64,000 nucleotides of DNA from Isurus oxyrinchus. Lineage: Eukaryota. Shown piece after piece: positions 17,766 to 63,062 of this stretch (position 1 is the first letter of the stretch; each line of letters opens with the position of its first letter). The stretch is taken from NCBI GenBank assembly GCA_026770705.1, contig JANJGN010000011.1, positions 73,656,001 through 73,720,000 of the forward strand, given 5' to 3'. The notes beneath the pieces are model-generated. The model was given only the letters and a program-made list of their open reading frames with translations. It was not told where the DNA came from and did no database searches. The translations under genes were made by a program, and so were the position numbers.

Positions 17766-20700
17766 CTAGGAGAGAGCTCTTCTTTAGTTATAGAGTTTGA
17801 TGCACACATGTAGTTGCTGCTGCTGTCTTGTAAATAAATTTAAATGTGTCTACCAAGAAAAGTTGCCTGGAAAATCACCTCTGTAACAAACTGGCGATGA
17901 GGATAAATCAGAACCGGTACTGTCCCTCACCCAGCGATTTTGAGTACCTAAGATAATTAAAAAGAAAGGAAGATATACTCATCTGTTTGGCAGAATTGAT
18001 CCATCTGAGCCAGCCACAGATGACTAGTCTCAATATATAGAATGTCTTGCCTTTCAACTTTCAAGCCAACAAAATCATGGGGGAAGAAAAGAGGAGTGAT
18101 ACTCCTGAGTATTTGTGGGAGCAAGACCTATAGTTTAATTTGAAGCTTGATGGCCCCCGAGTGCCCCAGATTCTAAGACTTTCAGTGAATTAGTAGACCT
18201 TGTTGAGCAACAATTTCAATCCAAGCCTTCAGTCACAATGCAGAGGTTCAGGTTCAATTCACGGGATAAAGCCCTGGGAGAGACCATTGCTACTTATGTG
18301 GTGAAATTAAAACAACTAATGGAATATCCGGTGAAACCCTGAATGATATGCTCAGGGATCGTTTGGTCTGTGGTGTGCAAGAGGATTGCTGGCTGAAGTA
18401 GATTTGATTTTAAGAAAGCGTCAGAAATAGCACTTACGAGGGAAAGCACCAAGGGATTCACAAACAATTCAAGGACTGCAAAATAGCACAGTTCTCCTAG
18501 TTGGGGGTAACAGTTAGTTGAAAGTGGTGTGAAAAGCCAGGACTCTGCTGTGAAGTGGGATACAGACCCCGCTAACCAAAAATTGAGAGGAAACAGCTTA
18601 GCAGCAAAGTCGAAAACTAATTTTTATTGACATGGAAACAATCATGCTGCTAACGATTGGTAATTTAAAAAGGTGGAGCGTATTTTTGTCACAGAAGTGG
18701 ATACCTATGGAAATGTTGCAAAGTGAGATTTAAAAAGGCTTCCAGGCAACAATCGAAGTCCAATGAAGTATATAGTGTAGAAGAGCCAGAAACAAGCAAT
18801 TCTGACATTTATTCATTATTCAACATGAAAGTTGGGAAGGCAGGGCCAATTATTGTCACAGTGGAAGTGAACGGTAAACCATTAAAAATGGAAGTAGGCA
18901 CAGGTGCTTCTACCACTGAACTAGGAGAACACACTTTCAGATATTTAAATAAAGGTGATCAACAATAAAATTTGGAACAAACATCTGCCAAGTTGAAAAC
19001 ATACCTTTTAATTGGATTTTTTCGCCTGTGTATCACCAGAGTATCTGTTCATTATAGACATCAATCGGCACAACTACCAGTGATGGTATTAGAAGGTAGA
19101 GGACCAAATTTTCTAGGTCGAAATTGGCTGAGAGAAAATAACCTTGATTGGCCAGTGAGATTTCCAAAAGAAGCAAGAGTGTGCCCGAAGGAGGAAATTT
19201 GCACTTTTCAGGCAAATAAATTCATTTATGTATGCCACCGGGTAGATGCCCAAGGGTTACACCCTGTTGACGAGAAGGTTAAAACAATCAGAGAGGCACC
19301 TGCACCTAAGAACGCTCTGAACCTAAATCATTTTAAGGGATGGTTGTTATTATGGCCAATTTTTACCAAATTTATCAACAGTTCTAGCCCCTCTACATTC
19401 AATGCTAAAGAATAACCAGCATTGGGTTTGGGAGTCATCCCAAGAAGAAGCTGTCATTAAAGTAAAATAGCTCTTGCACTCTTCAAATTTGCTAGTGCAT
19501 TATGACCTGGCAAAGGAATTGGTACTCACTTGCAATCCCCCTATGGGGTGGGAGCAGTACTATCTCACAAGATGGATGACTGCAGAGAGAGGCCGATAAG
19601 CTACGTATCCAGGACACTTACCGCAGCTGAAAAAGGATATTCTCAGATCGAAAAGGAAGATCTATCGCTTATTTTTGTTGTAACAAAATTCCACCAATGC
19701 GTGCATAGGCGACATTTCAGAAAAGTATCAGACCACAAACCACTTTTGGGTCTGTTTAGCAAGGAAAAGGCTATACCTCCCATAGCTTCTGCATAAATAC
19801 AAAGATGGGCCCTAATTTTGGCAGCATATGCATACACCTTTGTACATAGACCAGTGATTTATATAGCAAATGCTGATGCCCGAAGTTGCCTTCCTTTGCA
19901 AGAGAACAGTGAGTGATGAATTTCCTAGATTCCTCACCAGTCTGTGCCAGGCTGATAAGAAACTGGATGAGTCATGATCCAGTCCTGCCTTGAGTGAGAG
20001 ACCAAGTGTTACATGGTTGGTTCCTGGAACCAGTCTCTGATGAATTGAAGCCATTTTTCAACCAAAAACACGAGATGAGCGGTCAAGATGATATTCTATT
20101 ATGGGGTACACAAGTAGTAGTTCCTTCACAAGGAAGGGAACCACTCTTAGTAGAGCTACGCAATGCCCTTCCAAGGATCTCATGAATGAAAACGATAGCG
20201 TGAAGTTATCTTTGGTGGCTGGGGATGGACAGCGATATTGAAAAGGTGGTAAATCGCTGTGTGCAATGTCACCAGCTACAAAAGTAGTCGGTGGCAGCCC
20301 CATTACACCCATGGGAGTGGCCTGGTGGACCTTGGGTGAGATTACACACAGATCACATTGGTCCTTCTCTTGGAACCATGTTTCTACTGCGTATAGATGC
20401 TCATTCCAAGTGGTTAGATTCTTATGAGGTAAAGTCACCAATGTCAGGCGCTGCTATGAAAAAACTATGCCAAAGCTTCGTCATTGATGGATTGCTGGGG
20501 GTAATTGTCTCAGATAACGGCACTGCATTTACGAGTGCTGAGTTTCAACAATTTGTCAGGATCAATGGTATCAGCGTACCATCCATCGTCTAACGGACTG
20601 TCGGAAAGAGCAGTACAAACTTTTAAAGATGGGAACAAAAAAGTTAACAGGTAAATCATTGGAAACTAAGCTTGCTTTTTTCCTATTTCACTAGAGAACA

Positions 20701-21532
20701 ACCCCCAACACTACAACAGGAGCACCACCTGCAGAATTACTGTTGAGGCACCATCTTCGAACAAGACTAAGCCTGATACTTCCCAATTTGGAGTGGAAGG
20801 TGGAGAAAAGTAAAGTGAACCAAAAAGTGACTCATGATTTGCATAAGTAAGGAATTTCAGCGGAGGACTAGTAAAGTAAGCTCTGTGAGCGGACCATTGT
20901 CATACCAGGATGGAAGTGAAGGGTTGGGTCATCCATAAGCATGTGGATCATTTAAGAAAAGGGGAGATACTCCAACAAAATGATGTTCTTCTTGTAACCA
21001 CTGATGAACCTGTGGTTCCTGTTGAAGTTGCTCAGCCAAGGATAGACATGCCTGATGTCTCTGTTGGAGTGGATGACACTTAACTGCATGTGCCTAATGA
21101 AGTACCTAATGTTAATGTGGTTCCAGAAACTGTGTTTCCTGCAAAGGAATCTGAAGTCGTGGAGCTATGATGGTCTACATGGATCAGGAAACCACCTGAA
21201 AGACTGAGCTTATAATTTGATGACATGTGTAAATATGGTAATGTCAAGACATAAATATGCTTGTAAATACAAAATGTACAGAAAAGTTAAAGGGGGAGGA
21301 ATGTAGTAATTATAGTTTTGATAAACGTAGGATGGTAGCTTTAAGAATAATCCTGTGTTGTAAGATCACATGATCTGTATAAACCAATGAGTTAGCAGTG
21401 TGGGGGCCTCTAGGAGAGAGTTGTTCTTTAGTTATAGCATTTGATGCAAACATGTAGTTGCTGCTGCTGTCTTGTAAATAAAGTGAAATATGTTCACCAA
21501 GAAAAGTTGCCTGGAAAATCAACTCTATAACA
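17766..21532 (+). mobile_element. Degenerate Ty3/Gypsy LTR retrotransposon copy 1 (gag, protease, RT core deleted, RNase H, integrase)
   Basis: Truncated 5' LTR to 17888 and PBS TGGCGATGAGGAT (17892-17904, tRNA-Ser(GCT)-like). Protease PLKMEVGTGAS, RNase H SPYGVGAVLSH..YSQIEKE..SDHKPL, integrase WVRLHTDHIGP..IDAHSKW..VSDNGTAF. PPT aaagggggaggaa, then the 3' LTR 21302-21532 (TGT...ACA). Confidence 0.93.
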
Positions 21533-22214
21533 CACTGCTTCCCAAGTCTGACTTCTATCCTAATGAACCATTTCAAACATTTTCAGTTTTTCACAGTTTA
21601 TTGCATTCGTTATCTGTGAGCTGTCCCACTCTCTTCATAGTATAATCTTAGCTGAACATCAGGAGCTTTTCATCTTTCTACATAGTTTAATAGATGGAAC
21701 AGAATTGTACCCAAGTACTTCAAATTACATTATGAAAAACCTGAGACTCCCCATTGACTTTGACACGGTGAATTTTGGGATAGGCCCAAACAGAAATCCT
21801 TCTTTCTGCTCACACAGAACCACAGATGACACACATCATGAAAAGTGTTCACCTTCAAAAAAATCTGCCAGCAAAAACAAACAGAGCTGCCTGGAGAACC
21901 TGCCAACAGAACAGCTGGTCTGCCACTTAGGTATCAGGAGAGACGTGCTGCTGGCTCTGGGAGCAGGAATATTCAGGGTTGCTGCTTGAGAATCACCCCT
22001 CTTAGATATCACTTTACCAATATTCTGCTGCTGATGGTCACCACTGATACTGGGACCAAAATGAGGTTTTGTCAGTCAAAGCAGCTGTGTTCTCATGAAT
22101 TTTTTCTGAAATGTGATTGGTCAATACATAACCAGTCAGTGAAAAAAACCTAAGGCTTTAGATAATGATTTTATTTCATTCTTGAGTGCTAGTTCCAAAC
22201 GTCTCCAGCAAACA

Positions 22215-28138: not shown

Positions 28139-28519
28139 AGCCTACTCTTTTAAAAATTAGTTCAAAACACCTGCTTACAGACAGGTGGTAAGAGGAAATC
28201 AGCACAGGTTGAACTGTTCCTCTCCCGTCCGTAACAACAAATTCTTCATATACATGAATTATGATTTTGTGACAGCACCCCTATAACTGATTTACTATTA
28301 TCTGCACTCTTTTTGGTTCTTTCATGAAAGAACATTTGCATAAAACAGCTGATTTAAGCATAAATGACTCCAGCTCAAAGTGCAATTCAGGTGGCTGCCA
28401 TCATAAAAGCAAATTAGCAATATAAATTTAAAATATATTTACGCTCACAAGTCAGTGCCATGGAAGATGTCTGCCAACCACACTGCGTGCTGCAGTTTTA
28501 TGGAGAACAATTAAGATAC

Positions 28520-31484
28520 TGTTATAGAGTTGATTTTCCAGGCAACTTTTCTTGGTGGACACATTTAACTTTATTTACATGGCAGCAGCAGCAACTACAC
28601 GTGTGCATCACACTCTATAACTAAAGAAGAACTCACTCCTAGAGGTTTCCTGTGATGCTAGCCTATTGGGCTATACAGATCATGTGATCTTACAGCACAG
28701 GATTATTCTTAAAGCTACAGTCTTATGTTTATCAGAACTCTAATTACTACGTTCCTCCCCCTTTAACTTTTCTCTACACTTTGTATTTATAAGAATATTT
28801 ATCTCAAGACATTACAATATTTACACAGGTCATAAAATTACAGGTTTGCTCTTTCAGGTGGTTTCCTGCTCCATGTGGAACTTCATAGCTCCACGCCAAT
28901 TCTTTTGCAGGAATCACATTCTCTGGAACCGCATTATCAGATACCTCATTACAGACATGCAGTTCAGTGTCTTCCACTCTGACAGAGACAGAGGTTGGGC
29001 ATGCCTATCCTTGTTTGAGAAACTTCAACAGGAACCACAGGTTCAACAATGGTTACAGGCAGAACATCATTTTGTTGGGGGTATCTCCCCACTTCTTAAA
29101 TGATCCACATGCCTACAGGTGGATCCAGCCCTCCACTTCCATGTGGCATCACAATGGTCCAGTCACAGAGCTTACTTTACTAGGTAACCATTTCAGTTGT
29201 CTGCCAAAATTCCTTACATATGCTGCTTCTTCAACAGTAAATTGTCACTCCCGAATACACAAAATCATGAGTCGCCTTTTGGTTCCCTTGACTGTTCTCC
29301 ACCTTCCCCTCTAAATTGGGAAGTATTAAGCTTCGTCTTATTCGAAGATGGTGCCTCATCAGTAATTCTGCATCCTCTTTCTATGTGTCACCATCTTTTT
29401 AACACAGAATTTAGTCTCAGCCTTCTTTTTGACTTCTTTTTGTCAGCCAGACTTTGCTCAGATGCAATCTCAACTTGTCTTAGTTCAGTAGTTGAGCTAC
29501 CCATGACTTCATTATCTATTCACATCTTGGAAAGTTCTACAACTTTTCCTTTCAAGGACTCTTTAGCTTCATTCAGCTGATTCTTCAGCTCTTCTGTCTC
29601 ATTCTTGTATCTGTTGGCTTCCTCCTGGAACCTTGAGTGACTGTTTCTCTTCATAATTTTCCAGAGGTACAAACTTTGACTGGAGGGATCCTTGTAGTGT
29701 GTGAAGGTCTTTCAACAGGTTTTCCTTTTCTTTGCGAAGCTCACTTGCTTCAAATTGAATTCTGCCATTCAGCAGAGTCTCCTTGGGTTTCTTCTGCTGT
29801 TCTTCCATGTCGTTGTTTAAGACAGTCTTCATTTCTTCAGGTTGCTGAATGCTTACACAATTCCTTTTCATCCTGTTGTGGTTCTTGGACACTCCAGGCT
29901 CTTTCTGAAGTACCTTTGTTCCTTTTTCAACTCAGGAACTCTTCCAGCTTCCTTTTGAAATCTCACTAGCCAATCAAGGTTAATTTCTCTCAACCAGTTT
30001 TGACCTAGAAGGCTTTGTCCTCTGCCTTCTAATACCATCACTGGTTGCTATGACTATGGGTGTCTATAATGAACAGTTACTCTGGTGATACCTTTCACCT
30101 GGATTTCATCACCGGTGTGTGTTTTCAACTTGGCAGATGTTTGTTCCAAATGTTATTGTTGATCACTTTTATTTATTTGAAAGTGTGTTTTCCTATTACA
30201 GTGGTAGAAGCACCCGTGCCTACTTCCATTTTTAATGGTTTACCATTCACTTGCACTGTGACAATAATTGGCTCTGTCTTCCCAACTTTCAAGCTGAATA
30301 ATGAATAAATGTCAGAAGTGGTTGTTTCTAGCTCTTCTACACTATATACTTCATTGGATTTTGATTGCTGCCTGGAAGCAACCTCACTTTGCAACGTTTC
30401 AATATGTGTCCACTTCTATGACAAAAATAACACCCTATCTTTTTAAATTGCCAATCATTAGGAGTGTGATTGTTTCTAGTTCAATGAAAATAAGTTTTCA
30501 ACTTTGCTGCTAAGCTGTTTCCTCTAAGTTTTTGGTTAGCGGGGGCTGTTTCCCACTTCGTGGTGGAGCCCTGGCTTTTTGTGCCACTTTTGGCTGACTA
30601 CTACCTCCAGCTAGGAGAATGGTGTCATTTGAATCTCTTGTGGATCCCTTACAGCACTTTCCATCATAAGCACTATTTCTAACGCTTTCTTAAAATCAAG
30701 ATCCACTTTAGCGAACAATCTTCGCAGAATAGCATCCTCCTGCATGCCACATACCAAATGATCCTTGAGCATATCATTCAGGGATTAACCAAAATTACAA
30801 TATTCCATTAACATTAGTTGTTTTAATTTCACCATGTAGATAACAATGGTCTCCCCCGGGGCTCTATTCCGTGAATTGAACCCGAACCTCTGCATTATGA
30901 CCAAGGGCTTGGGTTGGAACTGTCCCTTAATGAGGTCTACTAATTCACTGAAAGTCTTTAAATCTGGGGCACTGGGGGTTGTTAAGCTTTGAATTAAATT
31001 GTGGGTCTTGCTCCCACAAATACTCAGGAGAATCACTTTCCTCTTTTCCTTCCACATGATTTTGTTGGCTTGAAAGTGGAATTCAAGATGTTCTACATAT
31101 TGAGACCAGTCATCTGTGGTTGGCTCAAATGGATTGATTCTGCCAAACTGTGGCATCTCAGATGACTATACCTTCCTTTCTTTTTAATTATCTTAGATTC
31201 TCACAATCACTGGGTGAGGTACAGCACCAGAACTGATTTATCCTCATCACCAGTTTGATATTGAGTTGGTTTTCCAGGCAACTTTTCTTGGTGGGCACAT
31301 TTAACTTTATTTAAAAGACAGCAGCAGCCATTACATGTGTGCATCCAACTCTATAAGTAAAGAAGAACTCTCCCCTGGAGGCTCCCTGTGCTGCTAATCC
31401 ATTGGTTTGCAAAGGTCATGTGATTTTACAGCACAGGATTATTCTTAAAGCTGCAATCCTACATTTATCAGAACTATAATTACA
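28520..31484 (-). mobile_element. Degenerate Gypsy LTR element copy 2 (same family as 17766-21532), non-autonomous, with a foreign insert
   Basis: LTRs 28520-28751 and 31256-31484, TSD gatac/ggtac, PBS TGGTGATGAGGAT (31240-31252), PPT 28752-28771. Gag MPQFGRINPFEPTTDDWSQYVEHLEFHFQAN, protease PLKMEVGTGAS, and only the integrase C-terminus. Confidence 0.93.
29372..29945 (-). pseudogene. Captured coiled-coil coding fragment (UACA/RAI14/ANKRD24/ANKRD35-like) inside Gypsy copy 2
   Basis: Reads CVSIQQPEEMKTVLNNDMEEQQKK...ELRKEKENLLKDLHTLQGSLQSKFVPLENYEEKQ, then after a frameshift FQEEANRYKNETEELKNQLNEAKESLKGKVVELSK. It is absent from sister copy 1. Confidence 0.55.
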
Positions 31485-32104
31485 GGTACAGACAGTCATT
31501 TTCAACACTGGACTAGGTAATGGATTTGGAGGCACAATAAGGAGTACAGCCATACAAATTAGTTATTTTTACAATTGATAATCAGAGTTAATACAAAACA
31601 CCCTGATGGAAGGAAATTCAAGCAAGAAAAACAAAGCAATTATTGTTTTTTATCGTATAGTAAAACGCTTTTAAGGGCAGACTCTATTGAAACTGCATTC
31701 CTTGCATTAATAGCTGTGCTCCATAACAAGATACACCATTTTGTGTTGTGGCAGAATGTTTTTAATGATAGGGAATAAACTGGGATAAATTACATTAAAA
31801 CAGTAAGCAGAACATTCAGGATAATTATATTAATGGCAAAAACTATAAAGCGAAGTCCAGCATTCTATACACTGCTCTGTGCAACATGCTTTCTGCTAGC
31901 TCCTAATACACAGCGTAGATCTACTTCACAGATTTCCACCTCCGTGTGACTGCTCAGATATCTCAATTAGATTGTTAAAAGTTTCCTTCTGTGTGCGTGC
32001 ATTGCTCTGTTAATGTGACATCCTTCTGATTGGTCAGATTGCATAACCGGAGAGAAAACAGACCTCCACGGTGTAATTCTTGATTGGGAATGATCAAATC
32101 AGAG

Positions 32105-36152: not shown

Positions 36153-36565
36153 TTAAGACCATAAGACATAGGAGCAGAAATTAGGCCATTCGACCCATCG
36201 AGTCTGCTCCGCCATTCAATCATGGCTGATAAGTTTCTCAACCCCGTTCTCCCGTCTTCTCCCCGTAACCTTTGATTCCCTTACCAATCAAGAACCTATC
36301 TATCTCGGTCTTAAATACACTCAATGACCTGGCCTCCACAGCCTTCTGTGGCAATGAATTCCATTGATTCACCACTCTCTGGCTAAAGAAGTTTCTCCTC
36401 ATCTCTGTTCTAAAAGGTCTTCCCTTTACTCTGAGGCTGTGCCCTCGGGTCCTAGGCTCTCCTACTAATGGAAACATCTTCCCCACGTCCACTCTATCCA
36501 GGCCTTTCAGTATTCTGTAAGTTTCAATCAGATCCCTCCTTATCCTTCTAAACTCCATCGAGTAT
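36153..36565 (-). mobile_element. Young CR1 3' fragment
   Basis: Reads LYSMEFRRIRRDLIETYRILKGLDRVD...FFSQRVVNQWNSLP and is nearly identical to 61170-61583. Confidence 0.93.
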
Positions 36566-36733
36566 AAACGAAGAGTAACAGGAGTAACAACAACCATCAT
36601 GCTCATCAATAATGGCTCTGTAGTTAATGAGTCTACTGAAAGATTATTGATTTTAAAATTATTACCTTAAATCTTCCAAATTAATGATCTATGTTTAATT
36701 CATTTTAAACAATAGCATGAAACAATTGGTTAA

Positions 36734-61169: not shown

Positions 61170-63062
61170 CATAAGACCATAGACATAGGAGCAGAAATTA
61201 GGCCAATCGGCCCATCGAGTCTGCTCCACCATTCAATCATGGCTAATAAGTTTCTCAACCCCATTCTCCTGCATTCTCCCCGTAACCTTTGATCCCCTTA
61301 CCAATCAAGAACCTATCTATCTCGGTCTTAAATACACTCAATGACCTGGCCTCCACAGCTTTCTGTAGCAATGAATTCCATAGATTCACCACTCTCTGGC
61401 TAAAGAAGTTTCTCCTCATCTCTGATCTAAAAGGTCTTCCCTTTACTCTGAGGCTGTGCCCTCGGGTCCTAGTCTCTCCTACTAATGGAAACATCTTCCC
61501 CACGTCCACTCTATCCAGATCTTTCAGTATTCTGTAAGTTTCAATCAGATCCCCCCTCATCATTCTAAACTCCATCGAGTATAGACCCAGAGTCCTCATA
61601 TTTTAAGCCTTTCATTCCTGGGATCATTCTCGTGAACCTCCTCTGGGCCCTCTCCAGGGCCAGCACATCCTTCCTGAGATACCGGGCCCAAAATTGCTCA
61701 CAATATTCTAAATGTAGTCTGACTAGAGTCTTATAAAGCCTCAGCAGCACATCCCTGCTTTTATATTCTAGTCCTCTTGAAATAAATGCCAACATTGCAT
61801 TTGCCTACCTAACTACCGACTCAACCTGCAAGTTAACCTTAAGAGAATACTGGACTAGGACTCCCAAGTCCCTTTGCATTCCAGATTTCTGAATTCTCTC
61901 CCCATTTAGAAAATAGTCCATGCCTCTATTCTTCCTACCAAAGTGCATGACCTCACACTCCCCCACATTGTATTCCATCTGCCACTTCTTTGCCCATTCT
62001 CCTAACCTGTCTAAATCCTTCTGCAGCCTCCCTGCCTCCACAATACTACCTGTCCCTCCACCTACCTTTGTATCATCTGCAAACTTAGCCAGGATGCCCT
62101 CAGTTCCTTCATCTAGATCATTAATGTATAAAATGAAAAGCTGTGGTCCCAACACTGACCCATGCAGAACTTCACTAGTCACCGGTCACCATCCTGAGAA
62201 GGACCCCCTTATCCCCATTCTCTGCCTCCTGCCAGACAACCAATCTTCTATCCATGCTAATACCTTGCCTCTAACACCATGGGCTCTTACCTTACTGAGC
62301 AGCCTCCTGTGCAGCACCTTGTCAAAGGCCTTCTGGAAGTCCAAGTAGATAACATCCATTGGCTCTCCTTTATCTAAGCTACTCGTTATCTCCTCAAAGA
62401 ATTCTAACAGATTTGTCAGGCATGACCTTCCCTTGATGAAACCATGCTGACTTTGCCCGAATTTACCATGCACTTCCAAGTATTCGGAAATCACATCCTT
62501 AACAATGGACTCTAAAATCTTACCAACGACCGAGGTCAGGCTAATCGGCCTGTAATTTCCCATCTTTGGCCTCACTCCCTTCTTAAACCCGGGGGGGGGG
62601 GGGGGGGGAGAGATTACATTAGCGATTTTCCAGTCCTCTGGGACACTGACCCTCCCTGACAGATCACCACTAATGCTTCCACTATCTCTTCAGCTATCTC
62701 CTTCAGAGCTCTGGGGTGTAATCCATCTGGTCCAGGTGATTTATTCACCTTCAGACCTTTCAGTTTTCCTAGCACCTTCTCCTTGGTAACGGCCACCGTA
62801 CTCACCTCTGCCCCCCGACTCTCTTGAACTTCGGGGATGTCACTCGCGTGTTCCACTGTGAAGATTGATGCAAAATGTCTATTCAGTTCCTCCGCCATTT
62901 CTTTGTTCCCCACTACTACTTCTCCAGCGTCATTTTCCAGCAGCCCAACGTCCACTTTTTCCTCTCTCTTACCCTTAATATATCTAAAAAAACTCTTGCG
63001 ATCTTCTTTTATATTACTGGCTAGTTTATCCTCATATTTAATCTTCTCCCTCCTTATTTCTT
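61170..63062 (-). mobile_element. Young CR1 LINE, 5'-truncated (~1.9 kb)
   Basis: Long ORF pieces KSPGPDGLHPR, GNYRPISLTS..YLDFQKAFDKV, FADDTKVGG and LEYCEQFW, with few disablements. Confidence 0.95.
62591..62608 (+). repeat. Poly-G run (18 nt) inside the CR1
   Basis: Direct reading of the sequence. Confidence 0.9.

Follow-up and report, generated by a model that had tools for sequence, protein, structure and literature searches.

A 64,000-nucleotide stretch of the genome of the shark Isurus oxyrinchus (assembly GCA_026770705.1, contig JANJGN010000011.1, positions 73,656,001 to 73,720,000; hereafter the window) contains two inverted copies of one long terminal repeat (LTR) element of the Gypsy type. 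One of them, copy 2 (28520-31484, minus strand), is a member of a non-autonomous Gypsy subfamily (A) that carries a cassette derived from the host gene UACA. In our assessment this cassette, which replaces the reverse transcriptase (RT)-RNase H-integrase core of the element, probably moved into A from another LTR family (B) by template switching, was amplified by helper elements and has since been a near-neutral passenger.

Within the window, copy 2 aligns to copy 1 in two parts, 31376-29938 (81%) and 29372-28520 (79%), and its sequence between 29938 and 29372 is unrelated to copy 1. This agrees with a first-pass annotation made from the sequence alone, in which copy 2 follows copy 1 to the protease, switches to unrelated coding sequence that replaces pol in sense orientation, and rejoins the integrase tail. 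The coiled-coil peptides quoted there are present in the translation of the insert, and both LTRs (TG...CA), the primer-binding site (PBS), the polypurine tract (PPT) and the near-perfect target-site duplication (TSD; 4 of 5 bases match) were all found. The PBS is complementary to a tRNA-Ser(GCT) gene of the same genome, and the 5' and 3' LTRs are separated by a Kimura two-parameter (K2P) distance of 0.174. Two measurements had to be revised. Against relatives with a full RT, copy 2 lacks ~2.1 kb of RT-RNase H-integrase and not the ~1.5 kb counted on copy 1, which is no intact parent and itself lacks ~660 bp of RT. Of the interval taken as foreign (29372-29945), the central part is UACA, the first ~70 nt (29874-29945) are a diverged protease-RT linker with 49-53 of 97 gapless identities to three RT-bearing relatives, and the last ~110 nt (29373-29481) are family-B sequence. 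The 5' joint of the cassette lies near 29875-29885, and a ~60-nt deletion near 29635 is private to this copy. With its many stops, copy 2 is a dead copy. Contigs from two organisms bridge its 5' LTR and flank by 42-52 letters, one of the samples possibly being the assembly's own; the other end, with only 26 letters inside, was not counted.

UACA as the donor of the cassette

An open stretch of 191 aa that occurs naturally in a sister copy matched four longer proteins, all of them UACA (best E 4.8e-32), which lies within the circle of coiled-coil genes (UACA, RAI14, ANKRD24 and ANKRD35) where the donor had been placed by the first-pass annotation. In this genome the UACA gene (G000:C25) has an exon of 2,715 nt (4881198-4883912) that encodes approximately residues 410-1314 and is 99% identical to the Carcharodon protein. 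The window insert resembles this exon far beyond chance (E 1e-53, 3e-22 and 4e-15), over approximately residues 914-1026 and 1173-1209 and with 79-90% DNA identity (~80% overall). An insert born from a transposable element is contradicted by these protein hits (4 of 4 UACA), and comparison of the cassette with Pfam and PDB gave no match. Nor does it behave as a secondary insertion: no poly(A) or TSD of its own was found on the insert, the LTRs, PBS, PPT and TSD belonging to the element, the missing stretch of pol is gone, and the joints are common to many copies. All of the captured UACA lies in that one exon, with zero splice junctions spanned, so the exon-junction check that had been proposed is uninformative for UACA; it does work for a TPR piece in the source family (see below).

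Size and structure of subfamily A

The expectation that the chimera had propagated as a gene-carrying subfamily was borne out. A DNA search for A returned 4,982 first-look candidates, of which the best 40 were scored and 29 other loci fetched; gag-protease lies upstream in 28 of these 29, and the integrase tail downstream likewise in 28. A 29-mer from the linker has 225 exact matches in the genome (control, 0), and the UACA cassette was present in all 30 loci sampled from these matches. Together with the rate at which the exact 29-mer occurs in the first 30 loci (6 of 30), this gives an estimate of ~1,100 A copies (95% range 580-2,900), which is probably too low because those first loci are the best-preserved ones. 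Among 60 A copies there are three main 3' joints (35, 13 and 9 copies), and LTR pairs, found in 20 of the 60, have a median K2P of 0.157 (0.086-0.212). No shark substitution rate or divergence date was found in the literature, the accessible part of PMC11886822 included. An exact 5-bp TSD is present in one (L114) of four measurable sister copies.

RT-bearing relatives of the window family exist in the genome, and from their translations (L062-L072) the order of the parent family is gag, protease-RT-RNase H-integrase. The RT, RNase H and integrase are presumed from familiar motifs, the Pfam scan having covered gag and protease only, both below cut-off; we also take A and B to resemble the Mag clade of Gypsy. 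In a gag-protease tree, chimeras (24 of the 48 sequences used) interleave with 10 RT-bearing relatives, forcing four changes, and such mosaics of helpers and chimeras point to routine template switching.

Two sets of chimeras (L091, L102, L108 and L088, L089, L111) have clearly more divergent gag-protease or integrase tails (internal branches 0.10-0.24), so that the cassette sits in several helper sublineages. Separately, L036 and L037 (G000:C3), 3.8-kb loci 0.9 Mb apart, have 99.6% identity and stem either from a recent segmental duplication or from duplication in the assembly.

Probable origin of the cassette in family B

A search with UACA (32,503 candidates, best 33 scored) returned the gene and many repeats with longer pieces of UACA. 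The 20 loci of these repeats that were fetched, family B, hold UACA residues 694-1210 with nested deletions, and at least 11 of them have direct terminal repeats of their own. No similarity between copy 1 and the 20 B loci was found by tblastx, and in several B loci the PBS fits tRNA-Leu, as opposed to the tRNA-Ser of A. B begins with a 5' stretch that we take to be gag-like from its general resemblance; in the ESM Atlas it met unnamed, DUF7041 and DUF1759 clusters at 0.90-0.95, which is a lead only.

A and part of B have the same deletion between residues 1026 and 1173 and the same 3' end near residue 1210, and A aligns to B for more than 100 nt beyond the end of UACA, over a tail that is not UACA. 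A cassette tree was built from 26 B copies, 22 of the 52 A copies and the UACA gene as root; in it A forms one clade (support 100/94), sister to the B copy L055 (97/90) and within the deletion-bearing B group (99/98). Judged from these sequences, the cassette of A descended from B and was not captured directly, and here the first-pass annotation, which had the window element itself capturing UACA mRNA, does not stand. Elsewhere in the tree, deletion-bearing and deletion-free B copies intermingle, which suggests recombination within B. No donor of the B tail was found: all 40 scored matches extend over almost the full query, as repeat copies would, and the nine others that were fetched served as B copies.

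Several B loci are unusual in other ways. Between UACA and TPR in L042 (5235-5620) lie ~390 nt of coiled-coil-like coding sequence; in some copies its 3' end corresponds to TPR exon 3, and the remainder has no donor match. In four of the 20 loci (L041:3901-5074, L043:3757-5115, L046:4340-6093 and L051:4156-5317) UACA residues 1184-1210 plus the tail precede residue 715, an internal duplication or permutation. In the sublineage formed by L050, L053, L059 and L060, a linker of variable tandem repeats (RERATKDP-like units) separates UACA from the gag-like stretch. Beside the B copy in L049 (2-2080; 7422-9500 on the reverse complement) there is an RT-like frame, open over 693 aa, that belongs to a different and apparently young retroelement, and similar sequence flanks L014. 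The pattern of the tRNA-Leu 3' end has 63 matches, most of them clustered on a few small contigs (G000:C26, C38, C42, C49).

TPR capture, family C and other sharks

Located 3' of the tail, B also carries a piece of the nuclear-pore nucleoprotein TPR, the gene of which is at G000:C16 in this genome. In the elements the TPR exons are joined without their introns of 0.1-8.5 kb, and the seven joins, over exons 4-11, are in phase in 27/27, 29/32, 30/33, 32/36, 33/36, 30/33 and 30/30 copies (counts in which one B locus was entered twice). As the introns are gone at the exon joins, TPR was captured as RNA. The TPR stretch of B has no match in PDB, and its ESM Atlas scores were all <0.9.

Eight of the 14 TPR-bearing loci fetched lack UACA and constitute family C, in which TPR follows a different gag-protease. 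A SCAN domain (PF02023, E 2.1e-6, over the cut-off) was detected in one of six family-C stretches scanned, and C may be kin to the Gmr1-like (SCAN-gag) Gypsy elements. B and C have the same two deletions in TPR exons 9-11 and C extends further at both ends, so the simplest order of events takes TPR first to C and from there to B. The eight C loci (L150, L151, L152, L153, L155, L157, L159, L161) carry spliced TPR behind a SCAN-gag and a protease. Their 5' joints are of two types, one at TPR exon 1 and the other at exon 2, and the LTRs of L150 are ~1 kb.

Related sequences are found in other sharks. A predicted protein of the basking shark (XP_078401457, 168 aa) has both the deletion and the basic tail of A, and both TPR deletions recur in a protein of Scyliorhinus torazame (GCB67842), in either case at the level of protein sequence only; by this token B or C occurs in catsharks. 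The mackerel-shark and catshark orders split more than 100 million years ago.

Reading frame and selection

A feature absent from the first-pass annotation is the in-frame fusion of the cassette to gag-protease. When 60 aligned A copies are read in the frame of the gag ATG, a stop is the commonest codon at 2 of 624 columns, versus 51 and 48 in the other frames, and both of these are CpG-decay columns without a majority codon; the family-wide frame closes approximately at the 3' joint. The offset from protease to UACA is in frame in 37 of 59 A copies (P 4e-6), and in L006 this joint lies within a naturally open stretch of 328 aa. With one open frame running over gag, protease and cassette, it is likely that active A progenitors encoded the three as a single protein.

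We estimated omega, the ratio of nonsynonymous (N) to synonymous (S) change, from variants present in at least 15% of A copies, the gag region including the start of the protease. Omega was 0.32 for gag (60 N, 68 S), 0.26 for protease (12, 18) and 0.44 for the integrase tail (23, 21), versus 1.1 for UACA (23, 8) and 1.2 for the B-derived tail (11, 3); the contrast between UACA and gag/protease is significant (Fisher P 4e-4). The shared gag-protease variants are under purifying selection, perhaps inherited from helpers, an origin made possible by the interleaving of chimeras with RT-bearing relatives. Purifying selection on the A cassette was not detected along element-to-element paths (omega 0.66-1.22, none significant), and TPR compared between C and B gave 0.77, also not significant. 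Since its omega is 0.7-1.2, the captured coiled coil is probably a passenger.

Four other arguments were set aside. A low gag-protease omega does not prove selection on the chimera, given that the untranslated integrase tail has 0.44 and that chimeras mix with helpers; in-frame deletions do not prove selection either, being predicted by the repeats of the donor alone. The omega of TPR between host and elements (0.24, 0.28) includes the conserved host branch, and an omega >1 for rare variants arises artificially when alleles are counted class by class.

Mechanism and alternative explanations

The relay could have begun with a Gypsy reverse transcriptase that jumped to a co-packaged TPR mRNA and back, giving rise to C. 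B would then have acquired TPR from C and UACA from host RNA, and successive microhomology deletions would have shortened the cargo. B RNA may have been co-packaged in a particle of the window family, where a double switch would have produced A; having kept LTRs, PBS and PPT, A could be mobilised in trans and swap its gag-protease and integrase tail with helpers. Long coiled-coil exons may recur as cargo by virtue of being A-rich (38-41% A in the cargo versus 31% in the parent pol), of offering in-frame microhomologies and of being tolerated as an open extension of Gag.

Several points weigh against this reading. The RNA route is inferred for UACA by analogy with TPR, as UACA spans no splice junction, and the one pointer to the direction from C to B is the greater length of C at both ends. 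Microhomology is seen at the deletions within the cargo and is unreadable, after this much divergence, at the joints of A itself, the 5' joint among them. As to neutrality, the gene compared with long B forms over the whole captured span gives an omega of 0.58 (P 0.02), in a comparison that includes the host gene's own branch. From gene to A, fixed stops in the A cassette number 0 versus 2.4 expected, and its one fixed indel is of 3 nt, with 46 of 58 single-copy indels shifting the frame; both are weak hints of selection for an open frame. Weak constraint is thus possible, the counts being small (4-45 changes on element-only paths).

These last points bear on an alternative that we consider unlikely, namely that the coiled coil was kept because its peptide, fused to Gag or set free by the protease, was of use to the non-autonomous element, be it by co-assembly with helper Gag, through the basic tail as a nuclear signal or RNA grip, or through TPR as a decoy of the nuclear basket for export of unspliced RNA. 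TPR retains unspliced RNA. Both identified donors are indeed long coiled-coil proteins, the A frame is open over its 624 columns, and the basking-shark copy is annotated as a protein. In B, the UACA-to-tail and TPR-to-pol-tail offsets are in frame in 25 of 27 and 24 of 29 copies, respectively, and the four shared UACA deletions (282, 102, 450 and 126 nt) and the two shared TPR deletions all keep frame. However, no amino-acid constraint was seen on element-only paths, and in-frame deletions are expected without selection, as 73-100% of the direct repeats of 7-10 nt in the donor exon are in frame (of the words common to element and host coding sequence, 39-52% are). The UACA-to-tail count is in part circular, its frame having been taken from a copy with an open frame at that place, and the offsets from gag to UACA in B (in frame in 9 of 20) and from protease to TPR in C (3 of 8) speak for neither side. 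The cargo also shrank repeatedly, L055 having lost nearly all of its TPR.

Improbable, too, is a transfer from B to A at the DNA level (ectopic recombination, gene conversion, or nested insertion followed by deletions) with retrotransposition afterwards. Both families are abundant, nested insertions are common in the fetched loci and joints this old show no enzyme signature, all of which would suit such a route. Yet no LTR, PBS or TSD of B is left in A, the cassette is in sense and in frame and cleanly replaces pol, the tblastx comparison above argues that there is no long homology, and the helper-chimera mosaics favour template switching. Direct capture of UACA mRNA by the window family, independently of B, would explain the identity of the insert to the exon and is very unlikely given the deletion, 3' end and non-UACA tail common with B and the nesting of A within B; the reverse transfer, from A to B, is argued against by the longer UACA span of B.

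Template switching from B thus remains our preferred account. A wider proposal, that Gypsy families have traded host coiled-coil modules (UACA, TPR and a third piece) as Gag fusions since before the split of mackerel sharks and catsharks for a non-autonomous edge, we regard as doubtful.

The case offers an old, high-copy LTR capture in a vertebrate with both donor genes located, in which nested deletions record the order of events. It is evidence for an exchange of cargo between unrelated LTR families that differ in primer tRNA and gag type, with co-packaging as the simplest route, and the set makes it testable whether captured LTR-element cargo is selected or merely carried. In practice, hundreds to thousands of UACA and TPR fragments can pose as false paralogues or 'uncharacterized' genes, as with XP_078401457 and GCB67842, and small RNAs against the elements could conceivably target two host genes.

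Anatomy of copy 2 and other features of the window

Table 1. Positions in the window of the parts of copy 2, its flanking duplications and copy 1.
Feature	Position	Strand	Basis or remark
5' LTR (TG...CA)	31256..31484	-	K2P 0.174 to 3' LTR
Primer-binding site, complementary to tRNA-Ser(GCT) 3' end	31240..31252	-	tRNA-Ser gene of genome
gag, broken; ATG at 31156; protease border approximate	30280..31156	-	weak Pfam Retrotrans_gag, E 0.021, below cut-off, on sister copy L002
Aspartic protease, broken	29980..30279	-	Pfam PF13975, E 3.4e-5, below curated cut-off, on sister copy L006
Diverged protease-RT linker, travels with cassette; 5' joint at its end	29874..29979	-	alignment to relatives
UACA-derived piece 1, ~residues 909/914-1026 of P0001, private ~60-nt deletion near 29635	29581..29873	-	80-90% DNA identity to G000:C25 exon
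UACA-derived piece 2, residues 1173-1209	29482..29589	-	29581-29589 overlaps piece 1 at in-exon deletion common with family B
Family-B tail, not UACA; family-wide reading frame stops approximately at joint	29373..29481	-	alignment to family B
Integrase C-terminal tail of parent Gypsy family	28765..29372	-	alignment to copy 1/relatives
Polypurine tract	28752..28764	-	
3' LTR	28520..28751	-	LTR pair comparison
Target-site duplication, 5' side, 4/5 bases match 3' side	31485..31489	-	
Target-site duplication, 3' side	28515..28519	-	
Copy 1: same Gypsy family, without cassette, 5' LTR truncated, ~660 bp of RT missing, chimera-type linker start	17766..21537	+	

The linker of copy 1 begins like that of the chimeras and then jumps to mid-RT, an arrangement found in none of 30 linker-pattern loci. 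In the gag-protease tree copy 1 is the sister of the window chimera (98/90), and it may be a recombinant between chimera and helper or the product of local conversion between two inverted neighbours. Elsewhere in the window, 36154-36576 and 61172-61593 form a 423-bp direct repeat with 94.6% identity, much younger than the window's other repeats that resemble long interspersed nuclear elements (LINEs; 65-77%).

Comparison with known systems

In plants, TR-GAG elements have LTRs and gag or gag-protease and lack RT, RNase H and the integrase core. A differs from these, as we take them to be defined, in its animal host and in a host-gene cassette that lengthens the open reading frame (ORF).

No report of families A, B or C, or of a capture with this scale, age and relay over three families, was found in the literature; Repbase and Dfam were not covered, so the repeats may be catalogued there without this annotation. 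Neither UACA nor TPR comes up in the main text of the Vertebrate Genomes Project (VGP) preprint (PMC13320880) or in that of the Greenland shark preprint (10.1101/2024.09.09.611499), the latter describing single retrogenes near LINEs or LTRs.

The closest likeness is to LTR-mediated retroposition, described for metazoans by Tan et al. 2016 (PMC5131818, as far as its accessible part goes) with multi-gene chimeras and further rounds of copying, and to maize Bs1, given there as 1-5 copies. In these systems, as here, host sequence from partial mRNAs of several genes replaces part of an internal ORF in sense orientation and is carried through non-autonomous rounds. The elements described here have the hallmarks of such LTR retrocopies: host sequence in the internal ORF, LTRs, PBS, PPT and TSD, TPR introns removed, and secondary retroposition with the same joints. 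The animal cases in that account are young and of low copy number, whereas here ~10^3 copies exist and the cargo, which is common to different shark lineages, has probably moved through three families that differ in primer or gag type.

In crocodilians, CrocERV29 (KIT-ligand, 9 copies) and CrocERV31 (nectin3, 6 copies) hold captured host mRNA under purifying selection (PMC4299795, in part). They too are old vertebrate LTR elements whose captured mRNA spread in a sublineage and is common to several species, but they are retroviral and their ORFs stand alone under purifying selection, while ours are Gypsy elements with a Gag-protease fusion and no detectable constraint. Retroelements of bdelloid rotifers exchange accessory ORFs across types (PMC5408684, likewise in part), which resembles the relay in that an ORF is swapped between kinds of retroelement instead of being captured anew from the host. 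The rotifer elements, however, are complete, and their extra proteins are ORF3 enzymes or env-like products whose cellular homologues are distant; our carriers lack RT, and their donor genes and exons are recognisable at ~80% DNA identity. Gene capture by LTR elements is therefore already known, and what is unusual in these sharks is the copy number, the age and a relay traceable through three families.

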